Assembly: GCA_964434105.1 (NCBI GenBank)
Contig: CAYSTJ010000003.1
Coordinates: 64,672-128,671 of the forward strand
Source: an uncultured Cellvibrionaceae bacterium
GTDB taxonomy: Bacteria; Pseudomonadota; Gammaproteobacteria; Pseudomonadales; Cellvibrionaceae
DNA: 64,000 bases
Reading direction: 5' to 3'
Both the position numbers and the translations under genes were made by a program. How positions within the stretch are numbered: position 1 is the stretch's first letter; the number at the start of each line of letters is the position of its first letter. Positions 11,342 through 52,884 of this stretch are shown here, piece by piece. The notes beneath the pieces were generated by a model. It had not been told where the DNA came from. It did not search any database and was given only the letters and a program-made list of their open reading frames with translations.

Positions 11342-11431
11342 AGCCGGTTTATAGTCATGCCGGGCTTACGCCGTTTCGGCAGATTGCATTACACGGGCGC
11401 GCATACTCAAAACAAAGGTGACTCCTGTCCT

Positions 11432-16518: not shown

Positions 16519-16524
16519 TGTTGT

Positions 16525-31601: not shown

Positions 31602-32302
31602 TACCTGACCATACCTTCCAGAATCGCGCGAAAGCGCGGCTGCAGGTGTTCCAACAGTAAGCTCGAGATGCGCTCATCGGTAAAATCGATCTGTACGTCC
31701 CTGTCATTTAGCGTTATCAACAGTCCATTGCGACCGTCCGCTGACGGGGCAAACGTCACGCCCTCACGCAATACGTCCGCTGCAACGTTTATAATGAAAT
31801 GTGAAAGACTACCCTCTTCCAGTTCCAGCGGATGGTGACGCAATTCTTCTATGCCTATTAGATCCCGGGGCAGCAGTACCGTCAGGCCCTCGCATTCATC
31901 CAGGCGGTTCTCCTTGCGCACCTTGCCGGCGATTTCCAGAATCAGCGACTGTAGAAACGCTTCCTGCTGCAGTTCTGTGGCAATCAGTCGTCGAACACGT
32001 TCACCGACCACATCGGACAGTTGTGCCTTGAGCTTCAGTACAATATCACGCATGGCGATATTTAAGGCGTCCTCGCCCCCGCGCCTGATCTTCTCCGCCT
32101 CCTGACGGGCGCTGGCGACGGTGTCCTGCGCCTGTTGTTCTGCTTCGGCCAGGATTTTGCCCGCCTTTTCCCGGGCCTCTGCGATCAGTTGCGCGGCTTC
32201 ACTTCGACCCGCCGCCACACCGTCGTCCCGCAAACGCTGAATCAACTGGTCAACGCCGGAGGATATCATTGCCTCGTCTTTTGCTTTCAGTTCGTTTTTC
32301 AC
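31601..32302 (-). CDS. atpE: V-type ATPase subunit E
   Basis: 233 aa with a long charged N-terminal helix (AEAREKAGKILAEAEQQAQ...) and a globular C-terminus. Confidence 0.75.
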   Translation of the reverse strand: MKNELKAKDEAMISSGVDQLIQRLRDDGVAAGRSEAAQLIAEAREKAGKILAEAEQQAQDTVASARQEAEKIRRGGEDALNIAMRDIVLKLKAQLSDVVGERVRRLIATELQQEAFLQSLILEIAGKVRKENRLDECEGLTVLLPRDLIGIEELRHHPLELEEGSLSHFIINVAADVLREGVTFAPSADGRNGLLITLNDRDVQIDFTDERISSLLLEHLQPRFRAILEGMVR

Positions 32303-32320
32303 ACCGACTCTCCGATCAGA

Positions 32321-32767
32321 TTACACAGGGATGTTTTCGGCGGCCACCAGGGCGAAAACAAACGCAAAAACCGCAAAACCTTCAACGATTGCCGCCGGAG
32401 CAAGCGAAAGACCGAATATTTCAGCTTTCATCTTGCTGGCATGAATCGCCGAAGCACAGGCCTGCCCCTGTCGGATTCCGGAAAACATCAGTGCCAGACC
32501 GGCCATAATACCAATACCGGCAAGCGCAGGCGCGGTTGCCACAGTCACTTCGCGCTGCAGGGTAAACATCACGACCACGCCATAGATAACCTGTGAAGAG
32601 GGCATTACGGATACACCAATAAATCGACCGTAACCCGACTCGCTATCCAGCATGGCGCCGATGGCCGCCTGCCCTGCAATGGCGCAACCGATGATACTGC
32701 CGATAGCACCGAGAGCCATTACACCATACATACCCGCCCAACCCAGGGCGATGACCAACTCATTCAT
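32321..32767 (-). CDS. atpK: V-type ATPase proteolipid subunit K (4-TM)
   Basis: 148 aa forming a duplicated hairpin, with the motifs MPSSQVIYG, SGIRQG and AIVEGFAVF. Confidence 0.9.
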   Translation of the reverse strand: MNELVIALGWAGMYGVMALGAIGSIIGCAIAGQAAIGAMLDSESGYGRFIGVSVMPSSQVIYGVVVMFTLQREVTVATAPALAGIGIMAGLALMFSGIRQGQACASAIHASKMKAEIFGLSLAPAAIVEGFAVFAFVFALVAAENIPV

Positions 32768-34568
32768 TCGGAAACTCCTGCTTTTTGAAGGCTCGAAAAG
32801 GGTAACCCTCGCCGTGCAACGCCCAGTTATAGAACTCTATGAAATTCAGGCGCAATCCATGCACCACACCGCTGACAATCGCCAGCACCAGATTCAGCGT
32901 GTGACCAATCAGCAAAATCGACACGCCGCCCAGGGTTCCCAGTCCCGAACCGGACTCGAAGGCATTGTTCGCCAGCCCGTTAAACGTCAACGCCAGCGAA
33001 GTCGATGCAAGACCCAGCGCAAACAGCCGAAGATAGGACAATACATCGCCGAACATGGAAGTGACATTGGTCAGGGCCTTTAGACCTTCCAGCGCACGCA
33101 GCAACAGGCTCAGAGGCGATGTTACTTTGCGATCGCTGCCACTGGCGAAAATCAAAACCATGGCGGTACCTCCCAGCAGCCAGACGCTGCTGCGCGCCAG
33201 CGTCCCGGCGCCAGACAGCGCATAGACTGCGCCGGCAACCAGCGCCAGCGCCCAGCCTATATGGCCCAAAGACCGGGTCGACCCACGCCATAAAAATGCC
33301 TGCTGCAGATTGGCAATCAGCAGATGCAGTATGCCGCAGCCAACGGAGATGGCCATCATGGTGTCAAACTGATTGATATCCAGTAACCGGGCCCGGTCGA
33401 AAACCGTATTTTCTGCCGGCGTATGCCCGAAATAGCTGCCAACCACCATCCCCCACACCAGAGACGTTCCACTCAACGCGGCCAGAAGGGGCCGCAGTTT
33501 TTTGCCGGTCTGTGAACGCCCCAGTGTTTTCCAGCCCAGCGCCAGAGCAACCAACAGCAAGACTGAATAACCGGCGTCGGACAAAATCATGGCGAAAAAC
33601 AGCGAAAATGAAATCATCAGGATCAGCGACGGATCCCATGTGCCATAGGCCGGTGTCTGGTAAAAATTCACGAGCAGCTCCGCGCCCTTCACAGACTCGG
33701 GATTTTCCAGCAGTGTCGGCGGCATTTCATCAGGCTGATGATCTTCGATGTGTGCGGCGGTTCCGGATTCTTCGCAAAACCGGGACAATGACGCAAGCCG
33801 CGAGGCCTCAATCCAGCCCTGCAGGACAAAAACGTCTTCGTAATCAACGCTATAGTACTGCGCAATGGTGAGTGCACTGCTATCGTCGGCACGACTGCGG
33901 TAACGGATCAGCAGGCTTATCCAGCGCGTATAACGCTGACGGTCCGCTTCGATATCCTCCAGTGCCAGTTCCACTTCGCGACGTTGTCGGGTTACCTCCT
34001 CCCGCGGCAAAGCGCCGGTATGATATCGTTCGACGGGCAGAATGTCGTGCGGTGGTTCTTCCTGGCTGACAATAACAACCCAAAAACGGTTGTCCTGCTT
34101 GTGAACAACCTGCCATGGCAGGTCAACCTTTAACAGCGCATCCCGGTGTTTGTAAGGCACAATATAAAACCATAACCGAAAACCGCCCATGTCAGTCAGC
34201 GGCGGCAAGCGGAAGTTGCCCCAGGCTTTCAGCGTTTCTTCCCTTTCTCGCAAAATTTCCAGTCGATCCGTAAGGTCGCGCTTCTCATTCTTGTTTTGTA
34301 GTACCTCCTCGATGACAGTTTCCAGGTCGATGTCATCGAAAAACGCCTGTTTCCGGCGTACCGGAGAATCTTCAAGGTAACGTATCGCCTTTTGCAGGTT
34401 TTCGCTTAGCGTTTGTGACCGGGCAAGCTCGGCGTCGTCCAGATCATTTCGATTCACAGATAGATCGGTCAAATGCACGGTCCCAAACGTCTGCAACGCT
34501 TCAAGCGCCTGGGCCTTTTCATTCAGTCGGCCCACCAACCAGACTTTCTTCAGCGTGGCGATGCTCAT
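32760..34568 (-). CDS. atpI: V-type ATPase subunit I (stator a-subunit)
   Basis: 602 aa with a soluble N-terminal half and a C-terminal polytopic half containing the conserved Arg region (LSYLRLFALGLAS). Confidence 0.9.
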   Translation of the reverse strand: MSIATLKKVWLVGRLNEKAQALEALQTFGTVHLTDLSVNRNDLDDAELARSQTLSENLQKAIRYLEDSPVRRKQAFFDDIDLETVIEEVLQNKNEKRDLTDRLEILREREETLKAWGNFRLPPLTDMGGFRLWFYIVPYKHRDALLKVDLPWQVVHKQDNRFWVVIVSQEEPPHDILPVERYHTGALPREEVTRQRREVELALEDIEADRQRYTRWISLLIRYRSRADDSSALTIAQYYSVDYEDVFVLQGWIEASRLASLSRFCEESGTAAHIEDHQPDEMPPTLLENPESVKGAELLVNFYQTPAYGTWDPSLILMISFSLFFAMILSDAGYSVLLLVALALGWKTLGRSQTGKKLRPLLAALSGTSLVWGMVVGSYFGHTPAENTVFDRARLLDINQFDTMMAISVGCGILHLLIANLQQAFLWRGSTRSLGHIGWALALVAGAVYALSGAGTLARSSVWLLGGTAMVLIFASGSDRKVTSPLSLLLRALEGLKALTNVTSMFGDVLSYLRLFALGLASTSLALTFNGLANNAFESGSGLGTLGGVSILLIGHTLNLVLAIVSGVVHGLRLNFIEFYNWALHGEGYPFRAFKKQEFPNE

Positions 34569-35182
34569 TGCGCGTCTCCCGCCGTATCCTGCTCTGCACG
34601 TTTGCGTTTGGATATTTTGGAGCGTACGACTGCGGCGCGTTCATTGTCAGAGAGAAATATCTCGATTCTCCGCATATTGCTGCGGGTATCCGGTATCAAA
34701 ATCTTGTCCAGCAGGTTCACCCTCTGTGTTGCTTTCCTCACCGCATAGGTCAGCTTTTCAACCCGCTGCCGGTGGATATCAACCTGAATACTGAGTCGTA
34801 CCGCTTCGTACAGATTGGTAATCAGTAAATCCACCCAGTGCGGCCGAACCAGATAACCATAGGTTTGTCGGGTCAGCGTCAATTCCTGCAGCTTCGGCAG
34901 GTAAATTCCCATCAGGTTTTCTTCAACTACCTTCACGGCGTCGATCTTTACCAGGTTATTGAATTCGAGTTCTTCGTTCGCCAGCATCGGCAGCCCGTGG
35001 GAGGCGCTCTCCATCGCGGACTGCAATTGTTCTTCCAGCTCCCGCAACAAATCCTGCTGTCGCTTCTTTTCGATGACGAGCTGCTTGCGTTTTAGATCCA
35101 GGGACGGCAGAAAGCGCTGGTAGTTCTCCAGCTTTTTCGCCTCCTTGAGATAGGTCGATTTACTGAGTGTCAGCTGTGCCAT
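34565..35182 (-). CDS. atpD: V-type ATPase subunit D
   Basis: 205 aa with LTLSKSTYLKEAKKLENYQRFLPSLDLKRKQL and a coiled-coil central stalk pattern. Confidence 0.9.
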   Translation of the reverse strand: MAQLTLSKSTYLKEAKKLENYQRFLPSLDLKRKQLVIEKKRQQDLLRELEEQLQSAMESASHGLPMLANEELEFNNLVKIDAVKVVEENLMGIYLPKLQELTLTRQTYGYLVRPHWVDLLITNLYEAVRLSIQVDIHRQRVEKLTYAVRKATQRVNLLDKILIPDTRSNMRRIEIFLSDNERAAVVRSKISKRKRAEQDTAGDAQ

Positions 35183-36515
35183 CTGGGAAGTACTTGTCGA
35201 TAAGTTGTTGTTTCATCAGCAATTCTTCGGGTCGAAAACATTCGGCCAGGGTCTGCCAGGACAAGTCGAGTGCATCTTCCAGCTCAATACTCACATCGAT
35301 ATCCATAAATCGTTGACGGAACAGCTTCCCGAATCGCAGCACACGCTGATCGAATTCGGATAGCTCGAATGCCATTGCCTGTTTCTGCTCCGCATCGCGC
35401 GCCGATGAATAAAAGCGAATCATGGTATTCATGATCTGACTGTGATCATCCCGGGTCTGCTTGCCGATAACATGCTGCTTCAGGCGCGACAGGGATCCGA
35501 ACGGATCGAGCACCCCGTCGTGCAGGTAAAACTGACCTTCGGTAATATACCCGGTGTTATCCGGTACGGGGTGAGTGACGTCATCGCCGGGCATGGTGGT
35601 CGCAGTCAGTATGGTGACAGACCCGCCTTTTTTGTAGTCGGCTGCTTTTTCGTAACGGCGCGCCAACTGGGAATAGAGGTCGCCCATATAGCCGCGGTTG
35701 GAGGGAATATTTTCCATGGCGATGCCGACTTCTTTCATGGCATCCGCATAGGCCGTCATGTCAGTCATCAGTACCAGTACCCGCTTGCCCTCTTCCACGG
35801 CGAACTTCTCCGCCACAGCGAGACACATATCCGGCACAAGCAAACGCTCCACCACGGGATCTGACGCCAGATTGACAAACATAATGGTGCGTGCAAAAAC
35901 ACCGGCATCCGTAAACTGCTGCTGAAACATATGGTAGTCATCAAAGATCAAACCCAGCCCCCCGAACACCACCAGATCAGCATCGGCCTGAATACCAATT
36001 CTTGCCAGCAACTTGTTGTAAGGCTCTCCCGCTACGGAAAATATCGGAATTTTCTGGCTTTCGACCAGGCTGTTGAATACATCGATCATGGGAATATTGG
36101 TGCGAATCATTCTGGATGCCAACTGACGCCTGACCGGATTCACGGAAGGCCCGTCAATATCGATCCTGACGTCCTGGGTCAGGTTCGGCCCCATATCCAT
36201 TGGCTGCCCGTCACCGCGAAATACCCGCCCGAGAATATTCGCTGAACAGGTAACGCGAAAGGGACTGCCCAGGAAACTGATATCGGCTTTGGTGGACAGG
36301 CCGGTAGCACCGGCGAATACCTGTAGCGAGGCAATATCCCGATCCAGCCGAATCACACGCGCCAGCGAACTAAAGCCGTTGGCGTCCTCGACCCGCGCCA
36401 TATCGTTCAGCGCGATGGTCGCATTGTTACTGGTCACATCGTGTGCGGTGCGTACCTTGACGATATCCCCGACGATTTCCAGAATTTTCGAGTAACGGGT
36501 CAGTTGCTGTGACAT
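35160..36515 (-). CDS. atpB: V/A-type ATPase subunit B
   Basis: The ORF track extends to 36686, but the first 57 codons are Arg-rich junk. The ATG at 36515 (MSQQLTRYSKILEIVGDIVKV) gives a canonical roughly 451-aa B subunit. Confidence 0.95.
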   Translation of the reverse strand: MSQQLTRYSKILEIVGDIVKVRTAHDVTSNNATIALNDMARVEDANGFSSLARVIRLDRDIASLQVFAGATGLSTKADISFLGSPFRVTCSANILGRVFRGDGQPMDMGPNLTQDVRIDIDGPSVNPVRRQLASRMIRTNIPMIDVFNSLVESQKIPIFSVAGEPYNKLLARIGIQADADLVVFGGLGLIFDDYHMFQQQFTDAGVFARTIMFVNLASDPVVERLLVPDMCLAVAEKFAVEEGKRVLVLMTDMTAYADAMKEVGIAMENIPSNRGYMGDLYSQLARRYEKAADYKKGGSVTILTATTMPGDDVTHPVPDNTGYITEGQFYLHDGVLDPFGSLSRLKQHVIGKQTRDDHSQIMNTMIRFYSSARDAEQKQAMAFELSEFDQRVLRFGKLFRQRFMDIDVSIELEDALDLSWQTLAECFRPEELLMKQQLIDKYFPDGTADTQ

Positions 36516-37115
36516 GTGACGGGATGAATCCTGTGTGTAATTATTCGGGATGATAGCAGCTATGATTCGCCGCGGTAACCGGCAGCGCACCACGGGCATT
36601 GTGCGCCGGCTCGCCCGGATTCTCATCAGGCGACTGCCTCCGCTGCGTACACTGGAATGCCCCGACTTCGCCTTCAACGTCGCCAAATGGATAAACGCCA
36701 GCGTACAATATCTCCGACCACCCGTCGCCTGTCAGAGGGTATCCTGCCGGATAGCGCAGAGAAAAATATTCGTCATCCTGATCAAAACGGGGACATACCG
36801 CTGCAATGATAAATCAGGCGCAGCAAATCACCAAATGGTCATCCGGCAATGCCGCACTGCAGCCTTATTCCGCGGACTGGGTTGAGCCACGGCTACCGAC
36901 ACCGTCAAACAAGCATAGCGGCACTGATTCCGTGGTATTTGTTCCAGATCAGAAGCTGCTACAGTAAATGGTTTGACACCCTTTTTATCCTGTTGACAGC
37001 GGAACAGTCAGCTTACCACCTAACTACAGAATACGGGCGATTTATTACCTGTTCACTACGGTAACCTATTACACTTTAGGCCCCGGCAGACAAAAATCAA
37101 CCATCTGGACAGGCT

Positions 37116-40694: not shown

Positions 40695-41690
40695 CTACTC
40701 GTAGCTCAGATCGCGGGCCTTACCCCAGAAGACACGGTAAATAAAGATTGTGTAACACGCAATCAGGGGAACGACGATCACCACGCCCACGAAAACAAAT
40801 TTCAATGATGCGGTGGACGCGACGGTTTCTGCCATAGTCAGGCGATCAATCACGATATCCGGATAAATGCTGTACGCCAGACCCAGCGCCGCCATGATGC
40901 AAATCACCACCATGCCCGCATAAACCATCCAGCCATTATCATCGCGCAACGCACCGGGCTTCCAAAGCAGGCTGATGATTATCGCGTAGGCGACGGTTGT
41001 GGTAACCGGGATAGGCAGCAGCATAAGCGCCGCAGGCAGGGTAAACCATTTATCGGCAATAACCTGACTGGCTACGGGTGTGGCGATGGAAATCAGAAAC
41101 AGGCCCACCCCCATCGGAATAACTGTGAGGCGCGCCCAGCGAGCTGCTTTACGGTAAAGATCGCCACTGGTTTTGATAAACAGCCAGCCGCACCCCAGCA
41201 TGACATACAACGTTGGCAACGCCAGCGCAATGGCTACCGAGAACAGTATTGCCGTTCTGGTCGACTGCAACCCCATCACATAGGCACCCAGCATCCAGCC
41301 CTGTGACAGCGCTGCCAGCAACGACCCGACAAAAAACAGTCTGTTCCAGCGCTGCCTGTATCGAACTTTGGCTTTTACCCGGAAATCAAACGCAACGCCG
41401 CGCAGGATCAGGCCCAGCAACATCAGGGTTACTGGTAAATACAGCGATGTCAGTATCATGCCATGGGCTGTGGGAAACGCGATCAGGAGTACCCCGACCC
41501 CCAATACAATCCATGTCTCATTGGCGTCCCAGAAAGGGCCAATGGTCGCAATCATCTTGTCCTTCTCTTCTTCAGTTGCCAGCGGCACTAGCAGACCAAT
41601 ACCCAGATCATATCCGTCAAGGACGATATAAACCAGCAGTGCCAGCCCCATCACTGCGAGAAAAAACAACGGCAACCAGGCTTCCATCAA
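40695..41690 (-). CDS. cydB: Cytochrome bd-type quinol oxidase subunit II
   Basis: 331-aa polytopic ORF whose start overlaps the subunit I stop, with a typical CydB/CioB N-terminus (LDGYDLGIG). Confidence 0.9.
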   Translation of the reverse strand: MMEAWLPLFFLAVMGLALLVYIVLDGYDLGIGLLVPLATEEEKDKMIATIGPFWDANETWIVLGVGVLLIAFPTAHGMILTSLYLPVTLMLLGLILRGVAFDFRVKAKVRYRQRWNRLFFVGSLLAALSQGWMLGAYVMGLQSTRTAILFSVAIALALPTLYVMLGCGWLFIKTSGDLYRKAARWARLTVIPMGVGLFLISIATPVASQVIADKWFTLPAALMLLPIPVTTTVAYAIIISLLWKPGALRDDNGWMVYAGMVVICIMAALGLAYSIYPDIVIDRLTMAETVASTASLKFVFVGVVIVVPLIACYTIFIYRVFWGKARDLSYE

Positions 41691-43054
41691 GGCACCTCCC
41701 GCGGCACTGTCTGCGTTCCGGGATTCTTGAGCTTCTGCTCGTCTGTCAGAGAACGTGATGATTTACTGGCCATATAGCGCAAGGTAAGAATAAAAGACGT
41801 CAGCAAAAAAGCGTACAGCAGCATATAGGCCGTAAACGTTGACAACACCATACCGCCAGTGTGGTCTGCCACCACCTCAGCCGTTTTTATTTCGCCATAA
41901 ACAATCCAGGGCTGCCGGCCAATCTCGGTCACATACCATCCCGCCAACACCGCCACCCAGCCCGAAAATGTCATCCAGGAAAGCGCAAGCATCAAACGAG
42001 GACTCTCGGACGCTTTCCCGCGCCATAGCGCCAGGCTGCCCCACCACGAGACCAGCAACATCAAAAAGCCGAGTCCTGCCATGATCCTGAATGACCAGAA
42101 AACAATCGCCACAGGCGGATGCTCACCTTCGAACTCGTTCAGCCCCAACAATTCGCCCTGTAAATCGTGCGTCAGTATCAAACTGGCCGCATTCGGTATC
42201 TGTACGGCCATATGGGTGGTGCGGGAAGCTTCATCAGGAAAACCGAACAGCGTGAAGTCGACACCTTTTTCAGTATGCCAGATGCCTTCAATCGCGGCGA
42301 TCTTGGCAGGTTGATGCTGAAGCGTATTAAGCCCCAGGAAGTCGCCCAGCACGATTTGGGTCGGCGCCAGCACGGCGGCTATGGTTACACCAGTGCGAAT
42401 GACTTTCCACGTACCGGGACCCGCTTTGTCCATTCGCACCCGCCAGGCACTGACCCCGGCGACAAAAAAGGCGCTGGTGAGCAGTGCGGCAATGAACATG
42501 TGCAGAAATCGGTACGTAAAAGAGGGGTTGAAGATAATCTCCCACCAGCTCGCCACCATTAAAACGTTATTTTCGACAGTATAACCACTCGGCGTTTGCA
42601 TCCACGAATTGAGCGCCATGATCCAGAAGGCCGAGAATGTGGTTCCTACTGCCACCAATGCCGTTGCAATCAGATGCAGCCGGTTTGACACAAGATTTTT
42701 GCCAAACAGCATTATCCCCAAAAACGAGGCCTCCAGAAAGAAAGCCGTCAATACCTCATAGCCCAACAGCGGGCCGGCAATATTCCCTGCCCGCTCCATG
42801 AAGCCGGGCCAATTGGTCCCGAACTGGAAACTCATGGTGATGCCAGATACCACCCCCAGTGCAAAGCTTAACGCAAAAATCTTGACCCAGAAAAAATAGG
42901 CATGCTCCCAGTCCCTGTCTCCGCTGAATGTAAAACGCAGCCGGAAATACAACAGGATCCACGCGAGACCGATGGTGATGCTGGGAAAGAGAATATGGAA
43001 ACTGATATTGGCTGCGAACTGCAAACGGGATAGAAGGAACGGATCGAGCTCCAT
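41687..43054 (-). CDS. cydA: Cytochrome bd-type quinol oxidase subunit I (short Q-loop, CIO-like)
   Basis: The likely start is the ATG at 43054 (MELDPFLLSRLQFA). The motifs FHILFPSITIGL and GWYVTEIGRQPW are present. A length of about 455 aa implies a short Q-loop. Confidence 0.93.
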   Translation of the reverse strand: MELDPFLLSRLQFAANISFHILFPSITIGLAWILLYFRLRFTFSGDRDWEHAYFFWVKIFALSFALGVVSGITMSFQFGTNWPGFMERAGNIAGPLLGYEVLTAFFLEASFLGIMLFGKNLVSNRLHLIATALVAVGTTFSAFWIMALNSWMQTPSGYTVENNVLMVASWWEIIFNPSFTYRFLHMFIAALLTSAFFVAGVSAWRVRMDKAGPGTWKVIRTGVTIAAVLAPTQIVLGDFLGLNTLQHQPAKIAAIEGIWHTEKGVDFTLFGFPDEASRTTHMAVQIPNAASLILTHDLQGELLGLNEFEGEHPPVAIVFWSFRIMAGLGFLMLLVSWWGSLALWRGKASESPRLMLALSWMTFSGWVAVLAGWYVTEIGRQPWIVYGEIKTAEVVADHTGGMVLSTFTAYMLLYAFLLTSFILTLRYMASKSSRSLTDEQKLKNPGTQTVPREVP

Positions 43055-43168
43055 ACTGCATACCTGCTGCCGAACATGGGCCACATAGCTTAAAGCATTC
43101 GCGATTTTATCGCCAGCGGACAGTTACCCCGGTTGACGGGTCTGTCTGCGGTGCAGCTGTTGAAGCGA

Positions 43169-44071
43169 TCAATCGTAGTGGTCGCGACAGTGCTCACCCG
43201 GGAATTCAAACTCAATGGTCGTGTGGGCCAGATTGAAGTCTTCCAAAGCGAGCGCGACACGCGCTTTCAGTACTTTCAGTTGACTCGCTCCCAACGCCTC
43301 CTCCAGACACAGGTGGACAGTCAGCACATGCTGTTCGCCATCCAGTGACCACAGGTGAACACCGTGCACGCCGTTTACACCGTTCAGTTCCACCAGTCGC
43401 GCGTGGACCTGCGCATAGGTGTGGGAATCCGGCGTTGCCTGGAAGAAAACAGCAGCGGTGGACTTTAACACTCGAAAGATATTGAACGCGATAAACAGGG
43501 TAAACACGATCGAAAGCAACGGATCAAGGATCGGCCATTCAAAGAATTGCAGGGTAATCGACACGATCAGCACCGCAAGCCAGCCAAGAACGTCCTCCAG
43601 GAGATGCCAGTTCAACGCTTTCTCGTTCAGCGTCGCGCCCTTACTCAATCGGTAGGCTGCATAGCCGTTGACGACGACCCCCAGCAATGCCAGATACAGC
43701 ATCCCCTGCGCATGAGGCATGACCGGGTCGCTCAACCGCGGAATAGCCATTGATAACACCCAGACACTCCCTCCGACGAGTACAGCGCCGCTTATCAGGG
43801 CACCCAGCAAAGAAAATCGCCGGTACCCGTAAGTAAAGGTCTGGTTGGCGGCCTTTCTACTGTATGTCTGTAGACCCCAGGCCATGCCAAGTGCCAGGGT
43901 ATCGCCCAGGTCGTGCACCGCATCCGCCATGATCGCCGTACTGTTGGTGAGCAACCCACCGACAACTTCGATCAGTGTAAAAACAAGATTTAGAAAAAAG
44001 GCCAACGCTATCGGATTGCCGGAAGCAGATCCATGGCTTTGAGTATGACTGGCGTGGGAGTGGTTATGCAT
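43169..44071 (-). CDS. czcD: Cation diffusion facilitator (CzcD/ZitB-like) metal exporter
   Basis: 300 aa with a His-rich N-terminus (MHNHSHASHTQSHG), the TM motifs ADAVHDLGD and HLLEDVLGW, and a C-terminal cytosolic domain. Confidence 0.9.
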   Translation of the reverse strand: MHNHSHASHTQSHGSASGNPIALAFFLNLVFTLIEVVGGLLTNSTAIMADAVHDLGDTLALGMAWGLQTYSRKAANQTFTYGYRRFSLLGALISGAVLVGGSVWVLSMAIPRLSDPVMPHAQGMLYLALLGVVVNGYAAYRLSKGATLNEKALNWHLLEDVLGWLAVLIVSITLQFFEWPILDPLLSIVFTLFIAFNIFRVLKSTAAVFFQATPDSHTYAQVHARLVELNGVNGVHGVHLWSLDGEQHVLTVHLCLEEALGASQLKVLKARVALALEDFNLAHTTIEFEFPGEHCRDHYD

Positions 44072-44306
44072 GCATCTGACCCGAGTATGTCCGTGCTATC
44101 CCTTATTACAGCACATACGACCGCGACCGGTAACGAAGCGCGCGAGAATCTACCTCGTCCATGGCGCGCCGGGCAAATGCGAAAATAAAATGTCAACCGG
44201 CCTGAATATCGCGACTGCAATCCTGTACAAGACCGGGGCACAATGCTTATGATCACGCGTTTCAACCACCGGGCCTCCAGCCCGCCTGCCACCCCAGATT
44301 GAGGTT

Positions 44307-44630
44307 ATGTCCATGCACAAGAAAATGATCGGTTCCATTACGCTGAGTTCGATGGTTGCGCTCGCCGCAAGCGGTGCCCACGCCGCCGACACGCCGTTCT
44401 CCGCCGAAAAGCTGGAATCGGGCTATCAGCTGGCCGCGGCAGAAAAAGACGCTGAGGCCAAGTGTGGCGAAGGCAAATGCGGCGAAGGCGCCTGTGGCGC
44501 AAAAAGCAAGGACAGTAAAAAGGACAGCAAATCCGCCAGCGACCCGGACAGCGACAAATCGGCCAAAGACGGGGAAGGAAAGTGCGGCGAAGGTAAATGT
44601 GGTGAAGGTGCCTGCGGCGCTGCCGGCTGA
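44307..44630 (+). CDS. hvfA: RiPP precursor: Sec-signal peptide + two EGKCGEGKCGEGACG modules (HvfA / EGKCG-bufferin type)
   Basis: 107 aa (the start could be 44313). It has a signal peptide ending AHA|AD and six Cys in two identical modules. The two 42-nt modules differ only at synonymous positions. A DUF692 gene follows immediately. Confidence 0.8.
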   Translation: MSMHKKMIGSITLSSMVALAASGAHAADTPFSAEKLESGYQLAAAEKDAEAKCGEGKCGEGACGAKSKDSKKDSKSASDPDSDKSAKDGEGKCGEGKCGEGACGAAG

Positions 44631-44649
44631 ACATCGGCGCCCTTTACTG

Positions 44650-45501
44650 ATGACTAGGTCGCTGTCGGGATCCGGTCTGGGTCTGCGTCGGGAGATGCTG
44701 CCGGTATTGCAGCAGGCGGATCTGTCCGTCATCGACTTTTTTGAAGTCGCCCCGGAGAACTGGATTAACCTGGGTGGTCGCTACGCGGCCGATTTACGCC
44801 ACTACAGCGAACGGTTTCCCCTGGTTTGTCATGGCCTTTCACTTTCGTTGGGAGGCTCTGACCCGCTGGATTTTGATCTGCTGCGCAATATCCGGCAATT
44901 TATGCGCGAACACGGCGTCACACTCTATACGGAGCATCTATCCTGGTGCGGTCATGACGGCCACCTTTATGACCTGTTGCCGTTACCGTTTAATGAAGCG
45001 GTGGCCCGGTGGGTGGCGGATCGTATCCGTCAGGCCCAGGATGCGCTGGGGAGGCGTATCGCCATTGAAAATTCGTCCTATTATTTTTTACCACCCGGCA
45101 GTGACATGTCAGAGTCAGAATTTATTGGTCAGGTGGTGTCCCTCGCAGACTGCGATTTACATCTGGACGTCAACAATCTGTATGTGAACAGTCGCAATCT
45201 CGGCTATGACGCAGACGATTTTCTGCACAGTATTCCGCGTGAGCGAATATGCTATATCCATGTCGCCGGTCATTACACTGAACCCGATGGCTGGATGGTC
45301 GATACACACGGTACGGCGGTTATCGACGACGTATGGCGCCTGTTGCAATTAACCTACCAGCTGACCGGCCGCCCCTTGCCCACCTGCCTGGAACGCGACT
45401 TCAATTTCCCGGCCTTTGCGGAATTACAGGGCGAGTTGCGGACTATTCGGCAACTGCAGTCAGGCAATGCGATCGCAGCCGATCATACAGTGGCCCGATG
45501 A
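44650..45501 (+). CDS. hvfB: DUF692 / MNIO (multinuclear non-haem iron oxidative) RiPP maturase
   Basis: The start is the ATG at 44650 (MTRSLSGSGLGLRREML). Family motifs are GLGLR, EVAPENW, HGLSLSLG, TEHLSW, AIENSSYY, HLDVNNLYVNS, HVAGH, DTHG and CLERDFNFP. The upstream ORF-track extension overlaps the precursor out of frame. Confidence 0.9.
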   Translation: MTRSLSGSGLGLRREMLPVLQQADLSVIDFFEVAPENWINLGGRYAADLRHYSERFPLVCHGLSLSLGGSDPLDFDLLRNIRQFMREHGVTLYTEHLSWCGHDGHLYDLLPLPFNEAVARWVADRIRQAQDALGRRIAIENSSYYFLPPGSDMSESEFIGQVVSLADCDLHLDVNNLYVNSRNLGYDADDFLHSIPRERICYIHVAGHYTEPDGWMVDTHGTAVIDDVWRLLQLTYQLTGRPLPTCLERDFNFPAFAELQGELRTIRQLQSGNAIAADHTVAR

Positions 45502-46283
45502 CGACGCCCCCGATCTCACTGCAACGCTTCCAGTCGGCATTCAGTCAGCGAATGCGTGACCCGGGGGGCGCGGCGCTACCGGACGTGCCGTCGCGCCAGC
45601 AAACGCTCTACGAAACACTATTGTTCAATAATCTGTGCGGATTTCTTGATCGGTGTTTTCCTGTCACAAAACAGCGTCTGGGCGACGGACCCTGGCTGGC
45701 GCTTTCCCGACAGTTCTATCAATTGCATGCCTGCGAGACGCCCTACTTTCGCGAGATTCCTCTGGAGTTTGTCAAATACATCCAGCGTAATGACGCCGAT
45801 TTCCCTGCCTGGCTGCCGGAATTGGTGCATTATGAATGGATTGAGCTGGCCGTTGCCGGCGATCCAGTCACCCTGCCCACTGAAACCGCACCCGTCCGAT
45901 CACTCGAATCGGATACCGTCGAATTTAAAGTCAATCCCACCCTGCAAAACCTGCAATACCACTGGCCAGTTCACCGGCTTACCGCAGACATCACGCGCGA
46001 TGACCCAGTGGCGCCCGACGCAGTCACTTGCCTGCTGGTTTACCGTCGCTGCGATCACAGTGTTCAGTTTGTGCAGGTCAACCCGCTTACCGCCTGTCTT
46101 TTGCAATTACTGGCTGAGCTTCCCCAACGAAAAAGCCGACTGGACGAGGCCATGCTGCGGTTGTTTCCGGCCATGGATCAACAGTGGTTGTCAGCGCAGA
46201 TCGCGGCCCTGCTGACCGGACTGCTGAGCGATGAAGCGATATTTATTGCGAGGCGACCGGCGGATGAATTATCGACTGACTGA
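45498..46283 (+). CDS. hvfC: DUF2063-family partner protein (HvfC/BufC-like)
   Basis: The ATG at 45498 forms an ATGA overlap with the hvfB stop. The protein begins MTTPPISLQRFQSAFSQRMRDP, with LYETLLFNNLCGFLDRCFPVT typical of the DUF2063 N-terminal domain. Confidence 0.8.
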   Translation: MTTPPISLQRFQSAFSQRMRDPGGAALPDVPSRQQTLYETLLFNNLCGFLDRCFPVTKQRLGDGPWLALSRQFYQLHACETPYFREIPLEFVKYIQRNDADFPAWLPELVHYEWIELAVAGDPVTLPTETAPVRSLESDTVEFKVNPTLQNLQYHWPVHRLTADITRDDPVAPDAVTCLLVYRRCDHSVQFVQVNPLTACLLQLLAELPQRKSRLDEAMLRLFPAMDQQWLSAQIAALLTGLLSDEAIFIARRPADELSTD

Positions 46284-47520
46284 GCACACGGGACCCGGAT
46301 CCCAGCAAGGCATTAAATGCCAGCTCAAGATCACTTCGCCCGACTCTTCCCGGCAGCTTCAGCCGCCGAATTAAATCGTCCAGATTGTACTTCCCACCGG
46401 ATTCTTTCCGAATTTCCTGATCGAGTTCGGCAATCAATTGTACGGCCCGCGCCGTGACCGGCCCTTTGGCATCGCTGGTCAGCAGTGAACCGGTGTCCTT
46501 TCCCCATTCGGCGAGCCCGTCGAGTACCGTCTGACGCCGCTTCGCCGTAATACCGCCGGACCGGTACAGAAGTTCCACAGCGTAGTATTCGGCCATGCCT
46601 TCCGCAATCCAGTCATGCTGTGGCTTGCCGCGCAAACCGGTCACGACATGAAACAGTTCGTGTAACACAGTGCTGGTGCCGTTTTCGCTGACAAGGGGGC
46701 GACCCCGGTGTAGAAAGAGCGAATTCGGGCCGGACAGCCCCCCCCGCCAGAAAGGGTCGTCGGCGCCGGTGATCAGCAATTTATCCGGAACCGGGTCGAA
46801 AGCGATCTCGAATTGCGGCCACACAAAAGTAATAAAGCTCAATAACTCCATCGGTCGGTAACCATGCCCACGAGGTGCGCTGACAATAATATTGGTATCG
46901 CCCACTCTCTCGCGGCGGGTCGCCAGCTTCCCGGCCACCAGCCAGCCGGTCGGTCGCACAAAACTATGCTGCCGTTTGGGGATGGAAAAACTGTGTTTTC
47001 CGGCGCTTTTCCACGGTGTATTGACCGATTGCCAGGCGTCTGGCAGGTCGAAATGAATAAACGCACGGGATTCCGCCCCATCGATGTGCCGCACCCGCGC
47101 CGGGGGCACCAGATTATCGCCGCGCATCAGCAGCCAGTCTTCTGCAAAGTACGCATCATATTTTCCGTCGCGCCGGATACGATCCACTGTGACCGTGTAC
47201 TCCAGATGGGCATTTTCATTGGGGGGTGCCCAGTCCAGCCGCCCGCCCTCCGTCGTCAAGTGGCCCGTATGTCGGACGACGTCGAGTTTCAGGTCGGCAA
47301 TATTAAAGGACAGATGCTCTAATCCGTGATTGTCCGCGGGCAAAATGGTGACGCGCGCATGTCGACTCTCCAGGTCAAAATCGACGCGATAATCGAGGCG
47401 ATACGCCTTGTGGTGACTGCCGTTTTGCGGTGGTGCAGTAGCAGGCTCAGGGGCAGATTTGTCCGCCTGGGCACAGGCAGACAAGAACAGGAGGGCAAAA
47501 AGAACTTTTAATGGCATCAT
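46243..47520 (-). CDS. Lipoprotein zinc metallopeptidase (HExxH, gluzincin; M61/M1-like)
   Basis: 425 aa with a lipobox (LSAC), VLHELFHV and a downstream AEGMAEYYA glutamate motif. Confidence 0.6.
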   Translation of the reverse strand: MMPLKVLFALLFLSACAQADKSAPEPATAPPQNGSHHKAYRLDYRVDFDLESRHARVTILPADNHGLEHLSFNIADLKLDVVRHTGHLTTEGGRLDWAPPNENAHLEYTVTVDRIRRDGKYDAYFAEDWLLMRGDNLVPPARVRHIDGAESRAFIHFDLPDAWQSVNTPWKSAGKHSFSIPKRQHSFVRPTGWLVAGKLATRRERVGDTNIIVSAPRGHGYRPMELLSFITFVWPQFEIAFDPVPDKLLITGADDPFWRGGLSGPNSLFLHRGRPLVSENGTSTVLHELFHVVTGLRGKPQHDWIAEGMAEYYAVELLYRSGGITAKRRQTVLDGLAEWGKDTGSLLTSDAKGPVTARAVQLIAELDQEIRKESGGKYNLDDLIRRLKLPGRVGRSDLELAFNALLGSGSRVLSQSIIHPPVASQ

Positions 47521-47624: not shown

Positions 47625-50282
47625 TCAGTCATCCTGACGAACCGGGGCGCCCAGCACCGTTATACCAGTGCCACCGCCATCTATCGGTATGGCAGGAATC
47701 CCGGGTGGCGGGAAACCTTCCAGAGAAAAGTCGACATCGTCGACAGTGCGGGACAGCGCGACTGGCGCGGGGTCCAGCAGGGTCGGATAAACACCGCAGT
47801 TCTCCGCACGACCACACAGGCTGAGGTCATTGTTAATATCGGGACCGGCAACAACATAGTAGTGTCCGGCCGCAACGCCTTCAAAAACGTACGGGTACAA
47901 TCCGTCTCGCGCTTCCACGCGCACCGCGTCCACCAGTTGCAGCGACACTGCGTCGAACAGCCCGGCGTAAATCGTTCCTGCGTCACCGGGCGCTTCAACT
48001 TCAGCAACCTGCACAGTAACCTCAAGCAACACCATGCTGCCATCGCTGGCATGTATATCCAGCTGACCGGTATAACGGCCGGGCGCCAGCCTCGAGCGGT
48101 CGACAGTCGCTATATAGTCGCCCAGGCCATTTCGGTCAACGTCAACGGCTTTTACCGACAACCAGTCGACTGGCACTACGATACGGTTGACCGCCAGCCC
48201 GGCCTCACCCCCCGCCCCCATGGTCCCCGCTGTCACGACGGTAAAACCACGGTGACTCTCCAGGCTGCCGATTTTCAGATTGCCCGGGTCAGCAACAAGT
48301 GTCGTCGTGCGATCCGCGTTGCTCAGGTTCACCGCCGCGGCTACCGCGTTCGACGCATTGATGATGCCATACCCGAGCGGGCCGGAGTGCACGGCATTGC
48401 CGGTCAGGGCGCCGCTGCGCAGTAACCCGTAGATATCGGCCTGTGTTATATCCGGATAAACCGACTTCATCAGCGCGAGAGTGCCGGCAACGATCGGCGT
48501 AGCAGCAGAAGTACCGTGACTGAAAACATAGCCTGGCGATCGAACGCCATCGACGCTTTCGTTTACCGACAGACTCAGCACCCCATCCGGATGGCCGTCC
48601 GCATTCAGATCCTGCGCGAGATCCCCACCGGGAGCCGCCAAATCTATGAACTGACCAAAATTGGTGTAGGGTGCCGGTTTGCCGTCAAGATCCGTTGCCG
48701 CCACGGATAACACCTGGTTATACGCCGCCGGGTAAAAAGGTTCCGTTGTCGCTTCGTTGCCGCCCGCCGCCACAGTCATGACGCCAAGATCGAACAACAC
48801 ATTGAATAATTCCTGGGAAGATGCCGAATAGCTGCCACCCCCAAGACTCAGGTTGATAATATCGGCAGGACGGGATGGCACAGTGCCACTGTCATTATCC
48901 AGCCCGGCCGCGTAGCGTACTGCCTGCATAACGTCATAGGAGTCTGCGCCACCAAATCCCACCGCACGCAGTGGCATCACTTTCACACCGGGCGCCGTGC
49001 CGACCATACCCTGGCCATTGTTGTCCATCGCAGCGATGATGCCCGCGACATGGGTGCCATGCCAGCTACTTTCTCCGATGACATTGCTGTCGCCAACATC
49101 TTCCGGGTCCGGATCCAGGCCATCACCATCGCGGGATACGTCAGGGTTTACGATAAAATCATAGCCTGGCACCAGCTGTCCCTGCAGATCCGGGTGGGCC
49201 GAGTATATCCCGGTATCGACGACGGCAACGAGTACATCCCCGGACCCCACAGTGGTATTCCACGCCGCACCCACATCCACTGCCGGCAAATACCACTGAA
49301 AACCAAAAGTCGGATCGCTTGCCGCCGTCTGCTGGATGTACATGCGGTAATTGGGCTCGGCCCGTAAAATGCCCTTCTCCCCAGCCAATGATTTTATGGC
49401 ATGCAACGTCTCAAGCCTGTCGAACGATGTCCGGTTGCGCTGCGCCAGCCACGCCTCAAAACCGTCTTTGACAGGCTGCAGTTGCAGTGCTGCCCGGGTC
49501 TGGGGGTTGATGCGATTAAAGCGCGCCAGCGCCGCCCGACGGGGATTCCGATGGGAAAGGCTTACCTGCAGACGGCTCTGCAGCGCTTCCGCCGTTGCCA
49601 TATCGGCACTGGCGTGTACTTCGTCGAGCTGAACGATCGCCGTGTCCGGCTTGAAGTCAGCTTTCTGACCGAACCGCGCAATTCCCGGCATCATCGACGT
49701 GGTGTCAATACTGAGGAGATAACCCGCGCTGCCTCGCACAGCGTTGACCACGATGATATAGGTATCATCGGCCGGCACGCTGACAGAATCAAATTCACCG
49801 GCTGTGGTAGAAGACGCGACCAGCATCATGTCGGATTCCCGATAAAGGTACAGATCGCAATCCGCCGACATAAAATCGGGATTTTGCAGGGAAACAAAGT
49901 GTCCACGCGCGAGCGACGCCCGGAATACGTCATTTTCGTCTGGCATGGTCGCGAAACGATCTCCAGCGATCCCGGTGGGTACCGCCGTAACGAAGCCGCT
50001 CAGTAAAACCCGTCCGGGTATCGACTGAATGCTTCCGGCCGATTCCCCATTGTTATTGAAGTAGGCGGCCTGCGGATCATTGGTGTCGCCGTCGACCGCT
50101 GTGTCCGGTCGCGCATGCACTGTACCCGCCAGCCGGTATGTCGCCGCCGGCGAGCCCGGCTCCGTCAGGACACCATTGACGGCGCCGGTGCCTGCTTCAC
50201 CACCACATCCACCGGTTGCCAGCACCGCCATAAGAAACCAGCGCTTTATGCCGGTCGGCAACCCTGTCTGATATTGATTCAT
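47625..50282 (-). CDS. Secreted/lipoprotein subtilisin-like serine protease (S8) with N- and C-terminal accessory domains
   Basis: 885 aa with the catalytic triad motifs VAVVDTGI, HGTHVAGI and GTSAATPIVAG, and a lipobox-like LATGGC. Confidence 0.9.
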   Translation of the reverse strand: MNQYQTGLPTGIKRWFLMAVLATGGCGGEAGTGAVNGVLTEPGSPAATYRLAGTVHARPDTAVDGDTNDPQAAYFNNNGESAGSIQSIPGRVLLSGFVTAVPTGIAGDRFATMPDENDVFRASLARGHFVSLQNPDFMSADCDLYLYRESDMMLVASSTTAGEFDSVSVPADDTYIIVVNAVRGSAGYLLSIDTTSMMPGIARFGQKADFKPDTAIVQLDEVHASADMATAEALQSRLQVSLSHRNPRRAALARFNRINPQTRAALQLQPVKDGFEAWLAQRNRTSFDRLETLHAIKSLAGEKGILRAEPNYRMYIQQTAASDPTFGFQWYLPAVDVGAAWNTTVGSGDVLVAVVDTGIYSAHPDLQGQLVPGYDFIVNPDVSRDGDGLDPDPEDVGDSNVIGESSWHGTHVAGIIAAMDNNGQGMVGTAPGVKVMPLRAVGFGGADSYDVMQAVRYAAGLDNDSGTVPSRPADIINLSLGGGSYSASSQELFNVLFDLGVMTVAAGGNEATTEPFYPAAYNQVLSVAATDLDGKPAPYTNFGQFIDLAAPGGDLAQDLNADGHPDGVLSLSVNESVDGVRSPGYVFSHGTSAATPIVAGTLALMKSVYPDITQADIYGLLRSGALTGNAVHSGPLGYGIINASNAVAAAVNLSNADRTTTLVADPGNLKIGSLESHRGFTVVTAGTMGAGGEAGLAVNRIVVPVDWLSVKAVDVDRNGLGDYIATVDRSRLAPGRYTGQLDIHASDGSMVLLEVTVQVAEVEAPGDAGTIYAGLFDAVSLQLVDAVRVEARDGLYPYVFEGVAAGHYYVVAGPDINNDLSLCGRAENCGVYPTLLDPAPVALSRTVDDVDFSLEGFPPPGIPAIPIDGGGTGITVLGAPVRQDD

Positions 50283-50787: not shown

Positions 50788-52884
50788 TTGATGAAGTCAT
50801 ATCTCAGCAGCGTCGCAATTGCACTGGCTTTGGTAACCACACTACCTGCTCACGCAGTCACTGAAGCCCTAAAGCCCACCAGTACGCAGTCCATTACCAC
50901 CATTGACATAATCGACAAGCTGTCAAAGCGTCATTACCGCAATCTGGTGCTGGATGACGCCCTCTCGGAAGCTTTCCTCAATGGTTATCTCGACAGTCTG
51001 GACCCCGGCCGACTTTACCTGCTGCAGTCGGATGTACAGAAATTCGAAGCGGACAAAAAGAAACATGACGACTATCTGAAAAAGGGCAATCTCCAGCCTG
51101 GCTTCGATATCTACCATACCTACCGCCAGCGGGTCTCCACGCGGCTGGAGTGGATCCTCGCCCGCCTGGAGGACCCGGAACTAAAGTTCGATTTCACCGT
51201 TAAGGAAGCCGTCGAGCGCGACCGCAAAAACGCACCCTGGCCTAAAGACCAGAAGGAAGCCGACGCCCTGTGGCAGAAGCACCTCAAACTGAACGTACTC
51301 AATCTTAAGCTGGCCGGCAAGACCGTTGAAGAGGCCCGCGAGACCGTCACGCGACGCTACCGCAATCAGCTCAATCGTATCCGTCAGCAGAACAGCCAGG
51401 ATGTGTTTGAGGCGCTGATCAATTCCTTTACAACACTTTACGACCCACACACCAATTATTTTTCGCCGCGGACCTCCCAGAACTTCAATATCAACATGTC
51501 CCTGCAGCTGGAAGGTATCGGCGCCGTATTGCAGTCGGAAGACGAGCACACCAAGGTTGTGCGTCTGGTGGCTGGAGGGCCCGCCGACAAGCAGGGCCAA
51601 CTCAAACCGGCCGACCGTATAATCAGTGTCGGGCAGGGTACTGACGGCGAACTGGTGGACGTGGTGGGCTGGCGTCTGGACGAAGTCGTTGATCTGATAC
51701 GCGGCAAGAAAGGCACCACCGTGAAACTGGAAGTCCTGTCGGGCGATACCGACGCCAAAACCGTGGCTATTCAGCGTGGCACCGTCAAGCTCGAAGATCA
51801 GGCGGCCCAGAAAGCCGTGCTGGAGGTCAGCGACGGCGAGCGTATGCGCAAGGTGGGCGTCATCGATATTCCGGCGTTTTATCATGATTTCGAAGCCTAT
51901 CGCCGCGGTGATAAGGATTACCGAAGCACAAGCCGGGACGTTGCCGAACTGCTGCAGGAGCTGGAAAAGGAAAACATCGAAGGTCTCATTCTGGACCTGC
52001 GCGACAATGGCGGCGGATCTCTGCAGGAAGCCACCATGCTGACCGACCTGTTTATTGATCAGGGCCCCGTGGTGCAGATACGTGAAGCAAACGGGCGGGT
52101 TAGCCAGCACAACCGATCACGCGCCAAGGCGCGGTACCGCGGACCGTTGATCGTGATGGTAAACCGGCTCAGTGCTTCGGCGTCCGAGATCTTTGCCGGT
52201 GCCATTCAGGATTATAACCGGGGCATCATTGTCGGCTCACAGTCGTTTGGCAAAGGGACTGTGCAGTTGCTGAACGAACTGCCGGAAGGTGCCCTGAAAC
52301 TGACCGAATCGAAATTTTATCGGGTATCCGGCGAAAGCACCCAACACCGGGGCATCGTGCCCGATATCAATATGCCGTTCTTTATCAATCACGATGAAGT
52401 CGGCGAGTCGGCGTATGATAATGCCCTGCCCTGGGACAAAATAAGCCCGGCCAAGCATGGCACTTATTTTGACTTCTCTGCCCTGTTGCCAAAACTCGAC
52501 AAGCGGCATTCCGAGCGCGCTATAAAAGATCCCGAGTACGTCAGGATTCTCGACCAGATTGCCCTGAACGAGAAAAACCGCAAGCGTACGACGATTTCCC
52601 TGAATGAGGAAGAGCGATTGGCAGAAAAGGAGGCTCAGGAAATCGCCGAGATGGAAATCGAGAACAAACTTCGGCGCGCCACGGGTCTTGAACCTTTTAA
52701 AACGCTGAAAGACTACCGGGAATTTGACACCGCGGATCAGGAAAAGGCCGAAGCGGAAGCGGCGAAAGCCCAGCCCACTATTGACCTGAAAGGGGATGCA
52801 TTGTTAACCGAAACCGGTTATATGATGCTGGATATGGTAGACATGATGGAAAAATCCGAACAACAGCGGGTAGCCAATTTTTAA
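50788..52884 (+). CDS. prc: Carboxy-terminal processing (tail-specific) protease, S41
   Basis: 698 aa with a signal peptide, a PDZ region and the S41 catalytic region (NRLSASASEIFAGA...SFGKGTVQ). The ATG at 50791 may be the start. Confidence 0.93.
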   Translation: MMKSYLSSVAIALALVTTLPAHAVTEALKPTSTQSITTIDIIDKLSKRHYRNLVLDDALSEAFLNGYLDSLDPGRLYLLQSDVQKFEADKKKHDDYLKKGNLQPGFDIYHTYRQRVSTRLEWILARLEDPELKFDFTVKEAVERDRKNAPWPKDQKEADALWQKHLKLNVLNLKLAGKTVEEARETVTRRYRNQLNRIRQQNSQDVFEALINSFTTLYDPHTNYFSPRTSQNFNINMSLQLEGIGAVLQSEDEHTKVVRLVAGGPADKQGQLKPADRIISVGQGTDGELVDVVGWRLDEVVDLIRGKKGTTVKLEVLSGDTDAKTVAIQRGTVKLEDQAAQKAVLEVSDGERMRKVGVIDIPAFYHDFEAYRRGDKDYRSTSRDVAELLQELEKENIEGLILDLRDNGGGSLQEATMLTDLFIDQGPVVQIREANGRVSQHNRSRAKARYRGPLIVMVNRLSASASEIFAGAIQDYNRGIIVGSQSFGKGTVQLLNELPEGALKLTESKFYRVSGESTQHRGIVPDINMPFFINHDEVGESAYDNALPWDKISPAKHGTYFDFSALLPKLDKRHSERAIKDPEYVRILDQIALNEKNRKRTTISLNEEERLAEKEAQEIAEMEIENKLRRATGLEPFKTLKDYREFDTADQEKAEAEAAKAQPTIDLKGDALLTETGYMMLDMVDMMEKSEQQRVANF

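Follow-up and report, generated by a model that had tools for sequence, protein, structure and literature searches.

The question raised by this locus is whether three tightly packed genes in a 64,000-nucleotide stretch of an uncultured Cellvibrionaceae bacterium (contig CAYSTJ010000003.1; the whole stretch is referred to as the window) form a biosynthetic cluster for a metal-binding peptide that is made on the ribosome and modified after translation (RiPP), and whether this cluster is as special as a first-pass annotation, made from the sequence alone, had proposed. The genes were described there as a signal-peptide precursor with EGKCG repeats, an MNIO (DUF692) enzyme and a DUF2063 protein, divergent from a metal exporter, and the three open reading frames (ORFs) were all found where they had been placed. 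Judged from its sequence features, the whole locus is very probably a functional three-gene captophorin cluster (EGKCG/HvfA-type, bufferin-like), captophorins being the present name of the class and 5-thiooxazole its modification. It is a further member of a characterised family, and the features that had been called special are common among its relatives. The genes concerned are:

44313..44630, plus strand: hvfA-like precursor gene, 105 aa (the ORF opens also at ATG 44307, which gives 107 aa)
44650..45501, plus strand: hvfB-like MNIO (DUF692) maturase, 283 aa, from ATG 44650
45498..46283, plus strand: hvfC-like partner, 261 aa, with a DUF2063 N-domain and an NGO1945_C/RRE C-domain, joined to hvfB by an ATGA overlap
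43169..44071, minus strand: CDF-family divalent-cation exporter, 300 aa, with a His-rich N-terminus; most likely a syntenic neighbour

Against the HvfB equivalog NF003818, the MNIO scored 386.9 bits (cutoff 360, E = 5e-116, model positions 2-264 of 264); it also matched Pfam PF05114 (E = 4e-96), and its nearest solved structure is PDB 3BWW (2.1e-68). Its scores stayed below the cutoffs of the BufB equivalog (247.3 bits, cutoff 310) and of MbnB TIGR04159 (42 bits, cutoff 325). Residue conservation was assessed in an alignment of the window protein with 79 homologues (80 sequences), in which the ligands were placed via MbnB (7DZ9) and 3BWW. All nine metal-ligand positions are present (H61, H96, E140, D173, N176, H204, D218, H220 and E248), as is D250, the equivalent of the catalytic base D249 of FonB, and the nine ligands and D250 are conserved to at least 97% in the 80 sequences. 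N176, D218 and H220 correspond to HvfB N175, D242 and H244 (site 3), which are essential for activity (bioRxiv 10.64898/2026.07.17.739211). The determinants of Lys-Cys type substrates, i.e., an Arg pair close to the N-terminus and a Phe that follows the catalytic Asp (PMC13097082), are present as R13 (76 of 80), R14 (78 of 80) and F251 (73 of 80). Taken one by one, the ligands, the catalytic Asp and the Lys-Cys determinants each recur in 73 to 79 of the 80.

The partner scored 216.3 bits against the HvfC model NF050145 (cutoff 142, E = 5.3e-64), matched PF09836 (1.4e-18) and PF22106 (6.8e-19), and has PDB 3DEE (NGO1945; 2.1e-15) as its nearest solved structure; 3BWW and 3DEE serve as the reference structures of the family (PMC13097082). 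DUF2063 and NGO1945_C/RRE domains in a gene directly after that of the MNIO, which mark PME type 1, were thus found here. The precursor exceeded the cutoff of NF050137 KCGExKCG_twice, the HvfA family model (27.5 bits, cutoff 19.5, E = 1.8e-06, two stretches), and fell short of the HvfA equivalog NF050188 (41.4 bits, cutoff 95). All three proteins therefore belong to the family by curated models, the orthologue-level HvfA model being the only one within it that was missed. The hidden Markov model (HMM) checks proposed in the first-pass annotation all came out positive, and the identity it had assigned, an HvfA/bufferin-type RiPP metallophore cluster with MNIO and DUF2063 proteins, stands.

The genes follow each other in the order A-B-C, with a gap of 19 nt between precursor and MNIO (20 nt had been given) and, as had been noted, an ATGA overlap between MNIO and partner, at 45498-45501; this arrangement indicates a single transcript. 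On an identical public contig, a gene caller used GTG 44599 as the start of the MNIO, giving 300 aa and a 32-nt overlap with the precursor. The start at ATG 44650 is favoured because the N-termini of homologues agree with it, and so does the closest lineage member recovered by way of the precursor (90% identity; others share 75% and 49%), in which a 283-aa protein begins at the equivalent position. An exact-sequence lookup of the 283-aa MNIO returned no record, which does not represent a real absence because the identical contig carries the 300-aa call from the upstream GTG.

The precursor region contains the following elements:

44301..44304, plus strand: Shine-Dalgarno sequence GAGG, 8 nt before ATG 44313, kept in the window and in the 90% and 75% relatives
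44313..44384, plus strand: Sec-type signal peptide MHKKMIGSITLSSMVALAASGAHA, 24 aa, with a predicted signal peptidase I cut after AHA (AHA/AD)
44391..44435, plus strand: leader-like motif TPFSAEKLESGYQLA, pattern xxF-(4-10)-GY-(2-4)-A, a presumed RRE contact
44454..44498, plus strand: core module 1, EAKCGEGKCGEGACG, 3 Cys
44574..44618, plus strand: core module 2, EGKCGEGKCGEGACG, 3 Cys

The 107-aa precursor of the earlier description exists as an ORF at 44307..44630, but its start is not conserved: ATG 44307 lies only 2 nt past GAGG, and the 90% and 75% relatives have ACG or ATT in its place. Because ATG 44313 and GAGG are conserved in these relatives, ATG 44307 is not, and the 105-aa product from ATG 44313 is on public record as an identical protein (P0001), the gene was placed at 44313..44630, and 105 aa is the likely true length. 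Computed monoisotopic masses are 10311.76 Da for the 105-aa precursor and 7918.52 Da for the mature 81-aa form. A Pfam search of the precursor, including DUF2282 as the Buf1 criterion, gave no match. Two minus-strand ORFs antisense to the precursor (44262..44732 and 44338..44634) had no family matches and were set aside as by-products of the GC-rich repeat.

In the predicted signal peptide, the n-region is basic (HKK), the hydrophobic core spans 17 residues at a mean Kyte-Doolittle value of 1.49, and A-x-A occupies -3/-1. The same layout occurs in 70-plus homologous precursors, and the proposal of a Sec signal peptide cleaved at AHA/AD is supported by both this n/h/c-region rule and the homologue architecture; for HvfA, cleavage of a 24-residue signal peptide was shown experimentally (PMC11252979). 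The precursor holds exactly six Cys (53, 58, 63, 93, 98 and 103 in 107-aa numbering), placed in two 15-residue modules that carry six x-G/A-x-C-G 5-mers in total and are separated by a Lys/Asp/Ser-rich spacer. The earlier picture of two modules holding all Cys is therefore accurate, except that module 1 reads EAKCGEGKCGEGACG, the first unit of which is not EGKCG. Between module 1 and module 2, the codons differ by 8 synonymous changes and 1 non-synonymous change of 16, and this mostly synonymous divergence argues that the protein sequence of the repeat is being preserved, as expected of a translated and selected sequence.

One relative (L088, 175-675; protein P0003, 166 aa) shares 89% identity with the precursor up to and including module 1 and the spacer, after which it has a shortened second module, then an EF-hand pair and an extra EGKCGEGRCG unit. 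It is a close-range case of the known Buf_EGKCG|EF-hand fusion type, with core modules swapped between very close relatives.

To what extent the locus departs from its family was assessed by a genome scan for related MNIO loci, which returned 80 loci; the best MNIO match, 68% identical, comes from a metagenome-assembled genome of an uncultured Cellvibrionaceae bacterium. A signal-peptide, xGxCG-repeat precursor stands immediately 5' of the MNIO gene in 74 of the 80 loci, and the leader pattern occurs in 61 of the 74 precursors. Six is the most frequent number of core Cys among related precursors (25 of 61); 8 related precursors show triple 5-mer modules and 11 show EGACG units. The two-module, six-Cys design is thus not distinctive of this locus, contrary to what had been supposed. 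For accessory genes, neighbouring ORFs were clustered and the clusters named with Pfam in the 60 loci with enough flanking sequence. DoxX is a neighbour in 32 of the 60 loci, an ECF sigma factor in 23 and NrsF in 12, while neither DoxX nor an ECF sigma factor is present in 25. A DoxX HMM made from 38 such neighbours in related loci had no match at E<=10 in the 64-kb window, in which HMMs from the corresponding neighbour clusters found neither an ECF sigma factor nor NrsF. The reported absence of DoxX is thus true for the window, but it does not set the locus apart: 28 of the 60 loci lack the gene, and the fontiphorin and bulbicupramide clusters likewise consist of three genes (PMC13097082, PMC12538549). 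The four-gene hvf architecture with DoxX/HvfX is accordingly not what is found here, and DoxX is no defining feature of the class. A family survey counted about 2,000 EGKCG precursors and described the core genes as occurring "in various combinations" (PMC12452194).

If the locus works as its characterised homologues do, from which each of the following steps is taken (at the locus itself, what is seen are sequence features), the 105-aa precursor would be made in the cytoplasm and held by the RRE domain of the HvfC-like partner, probably via the PF...L..GYQ.A leader motif; TPFSAEKLESGYQLA is the presumed contact. The partner would heterodimerise with the HvfB-like MNIO and thereby enable a mixed-valent diiron state, HvfB being a mixed-valent diiron oxidase that depends on HvfC (bioRxiv 10.64898/2026.07.17.739211). 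With O2, the enzyme would oxidise each core Cys by four electrons and join it to the carbonyl of the residue before it (Lys; Ala in EGACG units), forming a 5-thiooxazole with the loss of 4 H per Cys, so that up to six rings would lower the mass by 24.19 Da. The modified peptide would then be exported by Sec and cut by signal peptidase I after AHA, leaving an acidic 81-residue periplasmic peptide in which thiooxazole N/S pairs may bind Cu(I) and buffer copper or related stress. Six -4 Da modifications and copper binding were reported for HvfA (PMC11252979), and captophorins in general are recognised by conversion of Cys to 5-thiooxazole (-4 Da each, absorbance at ~302-305 nm) and by Cu(I) binding of the modified peptide. 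In fontiphorin, iodoacetamide was shown to alkylate the ring thiols. The chemistry given in the first-pass annotation, in which Cys residues become heterocycles of periplasmic copper-binding peptides, is correct in outline; the ring, including that of oxazolin in its revised structure, is now assigned as 5-thiooxazole (PMC13097082; bioRxiv 10.64898/2026.06.05.730506).

Within this explanation, and as a refinement of it that replaces nothing, modification could be partial: only the four Lys-Cys sites would be converted (4 rings, -16.13 Da), and the Ala-Cys sites C63 and C103 (107-aa numbering) would stay as thiols or a disulfide. Both the substrate logo of the family and the contact made by the conserved F251 are centred on Lys at position 3, and turnover can drop with variants of the flanking residues (PMC13097082). 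The EAACGEGACG double variant, however, was processed by FonBC (PMC13097082), and natural EGACG units occur in the 11 related precursors mentioned above, the 90% and 75% relatives keeping them in each of the two modules; their recurrence and retention argue that these units are used. Partial modification is therefore considered unlikely, and by analogy with these homologues all six Cys are probably modified, the Ala-Cys sites being the least certain.

Comparison with known systems supports placing the locus among captophorins and shows where it differs from each of them. The view that this class was recognised only very recently and is mostly uncharacterised is outdated, since curated NCBIfam models exist and at least four EGKCG-type members have been studied experimentally, namely, oxazolin, fontiphorin, gonophorin, and bulbicupramide. 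With oxazolin of nontypeable Haemophilus influenzae (HvfA/B/C(/X); PMC11252979), the locus shares a signal-peptide precursor of ~100 aa with six Cys in EGKCG-type repeats, and an MNIO followed by a DUF2063/RRE partner, both above the HvfB and HvfC cutoffs. It differs in having no DoxX/HvfX gene, in two modules of three Cys each where oxazolin has three AEGKCGEGKCG repeats of two Cys, in lacking the N-terminal disulfide Cys pair, in the precursor score below the HvfA equivalog cutoff, and in an MNIO without the ~24-residue insertion of 3BWW. Fontiphorin (FonABC, Fontimonas thermophila; PMC13097082) has the same minimal, DoxX-less, gammaproteobacterial three-gene cluster, EAKCGEGKCG units, one FonA segment with three consecutive modified sites, and the R-R and D-F specificity residues in the MNIO. 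Fontiphorin has seven sites whereas the present precursor has six, EGACG is natural here and was tested in FonA as engineered variants only, and the genomic neighbours differ. Bulbicupramide (MmrABC, Microbulbifer; PMC12538549) also comes from a three-gene, DoxX-less cluster and has six modified Cys in EGKCG cassettes, which are arranged as three two-Cys cassettes in contrast to the two three-Cys modules described here; no protease lies near mmr according to that paper, whereas three peptidase genes follow here, any link of which to the cluster would be hypothetical. On this basis, the locus would act in the manner of oxazolin, fontiphorin, and bulbicupramide.

The more distant systems share the principle. 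Bufferins (Buf1/Buf2, BufABC(D), Caulobacter and others; PMC11626156, PMC12452194) have in common with the locus the enzyme-partner pair, 5-thiooxazole chemistry, a Sec signal peptide, and the logic of periplasmic copper buffering. Their precursors are DUF2282 or 6/12-Cys folds and not EGKCG repeats, the BufB equivalog score is not reached here (247.3 vs 310), and bufferin loci often carry ECF sigma/NrsF regulators, unlike the window. Methanobactin (MbnABC) likewise involves Cys oxidation of a ribosomal peptide by an MNIO-family enzyme to a copper-binding heterocycle, but its product is an oxazolone-thioamide, a small secreted chalkophore for copper uptake, and its partner is MbnC instead of DUF2063 (MbnB model, 42 vs 325).

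Several points weigh against reading the locus as a functional cluster. By its model scores (41.4 vs 95), the precursor belongs to the family without being an orthologue of H. influenzae HvfA; the signal peptide is predicted by rule only; and expression, modification, export, and metal binding at this locus are carried over from homologues, the conversion of Ala-Cys by the enzyme of the locus being the least certain part. Even in characterised members the physiological role is unsettled: no expression of the homologous mmr genes was detected in Microbulbifer, whether or not copper was added, and the protection that mmr gave in E. coli was marginal (PMC12538549). The silent mmr genes would also fit the idea that the present cluster is a cryptic remnant, or that its product acts unmodified as a Cys-rich periplasmic peptide. 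Against this idea stand the three intact genes with all catalytic residues conserved, the tight gene coupling, the purifying selection on the peptide indicated by the module codon comparison, and the conservation of the cluster across the lineage, which leave it scarcely probable.

A functional captophorin cluster being the preferred explanation, the next question is whether the divergent CDF exporter belongs to it. The CDF protein matched TIGR01297 (E = 2.7e-60), PF01545, and PF16916, and its nearest equivalog, ZitB, scored 131.9 bits (cutoff 408). The first-pass annotation had described a shared divergent control region of 236 bp with the exporter and had taken it to suggest a metal-stress regulon. 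The divergent CDF gene is indeed present, while the distance from its start at 44071 is 235 bp to ATG 44307, or 241 bp to ATG 44313. The peptide and the exporter might accordingly form one Zn/Co/Cd stress module, with the captophorin as a periplasmic sink or hand-off partner for exported metal. In its favor, the genes are divergent across a spacer of 235 to 241 bp, all close relatives that were recovered (precursor identity 90% to 49%) share the arrangement, and the spacer contains two conserved blocks. Among the related loci, in contrast, 79 of 80 have no CDF homologue within 6 kb of hvfB, the one that does being the closest relative, and the CDF gene was therefore rejected as a recurrent family neighbour. 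The 90%, 75%, and 49% relatives all retain the order pta - cydBA - CDF <> hvfABC - HExxH peptidase, which is what plain synteny would give: within the lineage, the CDF adjacency is conserved as one element of a broader syntenic block, without being a recurrent feature of the family. Genes for the cytochrome bd oxidase subunits I and II (40695-43084, minus strand) lie directly 3' of the CDF gene after an 84-bp gap and are kept across the lineage.

A footprint comparison of five lineage sequences located the two conserved spacer blocks ~130 bp apart:

44103..44116, minus strand: invariant block TTATTACAGCACAT, reading TGcTGTAAT on the minus strand, extended -10-like, ~32 to 45 bp upstream of the CDF start codon
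44224..44253, plus strand: candidate sigma-70 promoter of hvfA, TGTACA-18-TATGAT, a consensus match only

In the first, A-TACAGCACA at 44105-44115, all five lineage members agree without exception at 44105 and 44107-44115; TTATTACAGCACAT may be the CDF promoter. The second is kept in the window and in the 90% and 75% relatives, and just ACAATGC remains in the 49% relatives. From their sequences the two blocks look like separate promoters. A repeat search and the five-sequence footprint found no conserved shared dyad or operator in the CDF-hvfA spacer. Three candidates were set aside. Two are the only repeats: an 11-nt direct repeat, TATGTCCGTGC / TATGTCCATGC, at 44086-44096 (near the CDF start) and 44306-44316 (hvfA start), which is unconserved and probably due to chance, and a weak inverted pair of 18 nt that relatives do not keep. 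The third, a GTATGT...ACATAC dyad noticed by eye, is missing from the 90% relative. No resemblance to a CueR, CopR/CusR, or Zur box was seen in the spacer by eye, no formal scan having been run. Rfam gave no match at the gathering threshold over the 64 kb, NiCo/czcD riboswitches included, nor at E<=1 over 43950-44700; folding of the 5' untranslated leader was no better than that of shuffled sequences (z = 0.66); and no metal regulator, whether for copper, zinc or another metal, and no copper-homeostasis gene was found among the window genes scanned. Furthermore, bulbicupramide bound Cu(I) and not Zn(II), Ni(II), or Mn(II) (PMC12538549), and 'CDF' and 'cation diffusion' have 0 matches in the text of the MNIO landscape survey. 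A joint stress module is thus highly improbable, the shared metal-stress regulon is not supported by this evidence, and the divergent CDF exporter is most likely a mere syntenic neighbour.

Downstream, a gene at 46243-47520 (minus strand) encodes a putative lipoprotein of 425 aa that carries HELFH as its HExxH motif and has a sub-threshold Pfam M61 match (E = 0.0036); it has no NCBIfam match and no PDB relative. The gene is convergent with hvfC, the two 3' ends overlapping by 41 bp, and its position is retained in all longer lineage contigs. An M61-like neighbour was rejected as a recurrent partner, being present in 1 of the 80 loci. An 885-aa S8 subtilase gene follows at 47625-50282 (minus strand), which the window shares with the 90% relative (there with a PrcB_C gene alongside) and which is missing from the 49% relatives, and then a Prc-type tail-specific protease at 50788-52884 (plus strand). 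It is conceivable, though very improbable, that clusters of this Cellvibrionaceae-like lineage have been recruited for a purpose other than copper, through co-regulation with the CDF exporter (Zn/Co/Cd) or through cleavage of the product into smaller metallophores by the adjacent HExxH lipoprotein peptidase; the basis for this is synteny at the lineage level.

Elsewhere in the window, a V/A-type ATPase set occupies 29013-36686 (minus strand); it comprises subunits D and I and two ATP-synt_ab subunits, along with two ORFs that have no assignment, in a region resembling part of a gammaproteobacterial (Cellvibrionaceae-like) chromosome. At 10625-12730 (plus strand), a gene of the VIT1 family (iron/manganese transporter-like) directly precedes one for a 457-aa protein with a C-terminal phage-integrase domain, and the pair may mark the edge of a mobile element. 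A tripartite efflux operon at 15094-19715 (minus strand) encodes a MacB-type ABC transporter, an HlyD/CusB-like membrane-fusion protein, and an outer-membrane efflux protein.

Taken as a family member, the locus would be annotated automatically by standard NCBIfam models as HvfA-family, HvfB, and HvfC, and its significance beyond a correct annotation is small, given published surveys of which one holds ~2,000 EGKCG precursors and another >24,000 genetic loci around PME1 partner-protein genes. Recruitment for a purpose other than copper, if true, would bear on the inducers of EGKCG clusters and on the cleavage of their products. For the family, the locus offers a modest natural test case for the modification of Ala-Cys units, and for the inducing signals of DoxX-less clusters that have no adjacent ECF sigma factor.

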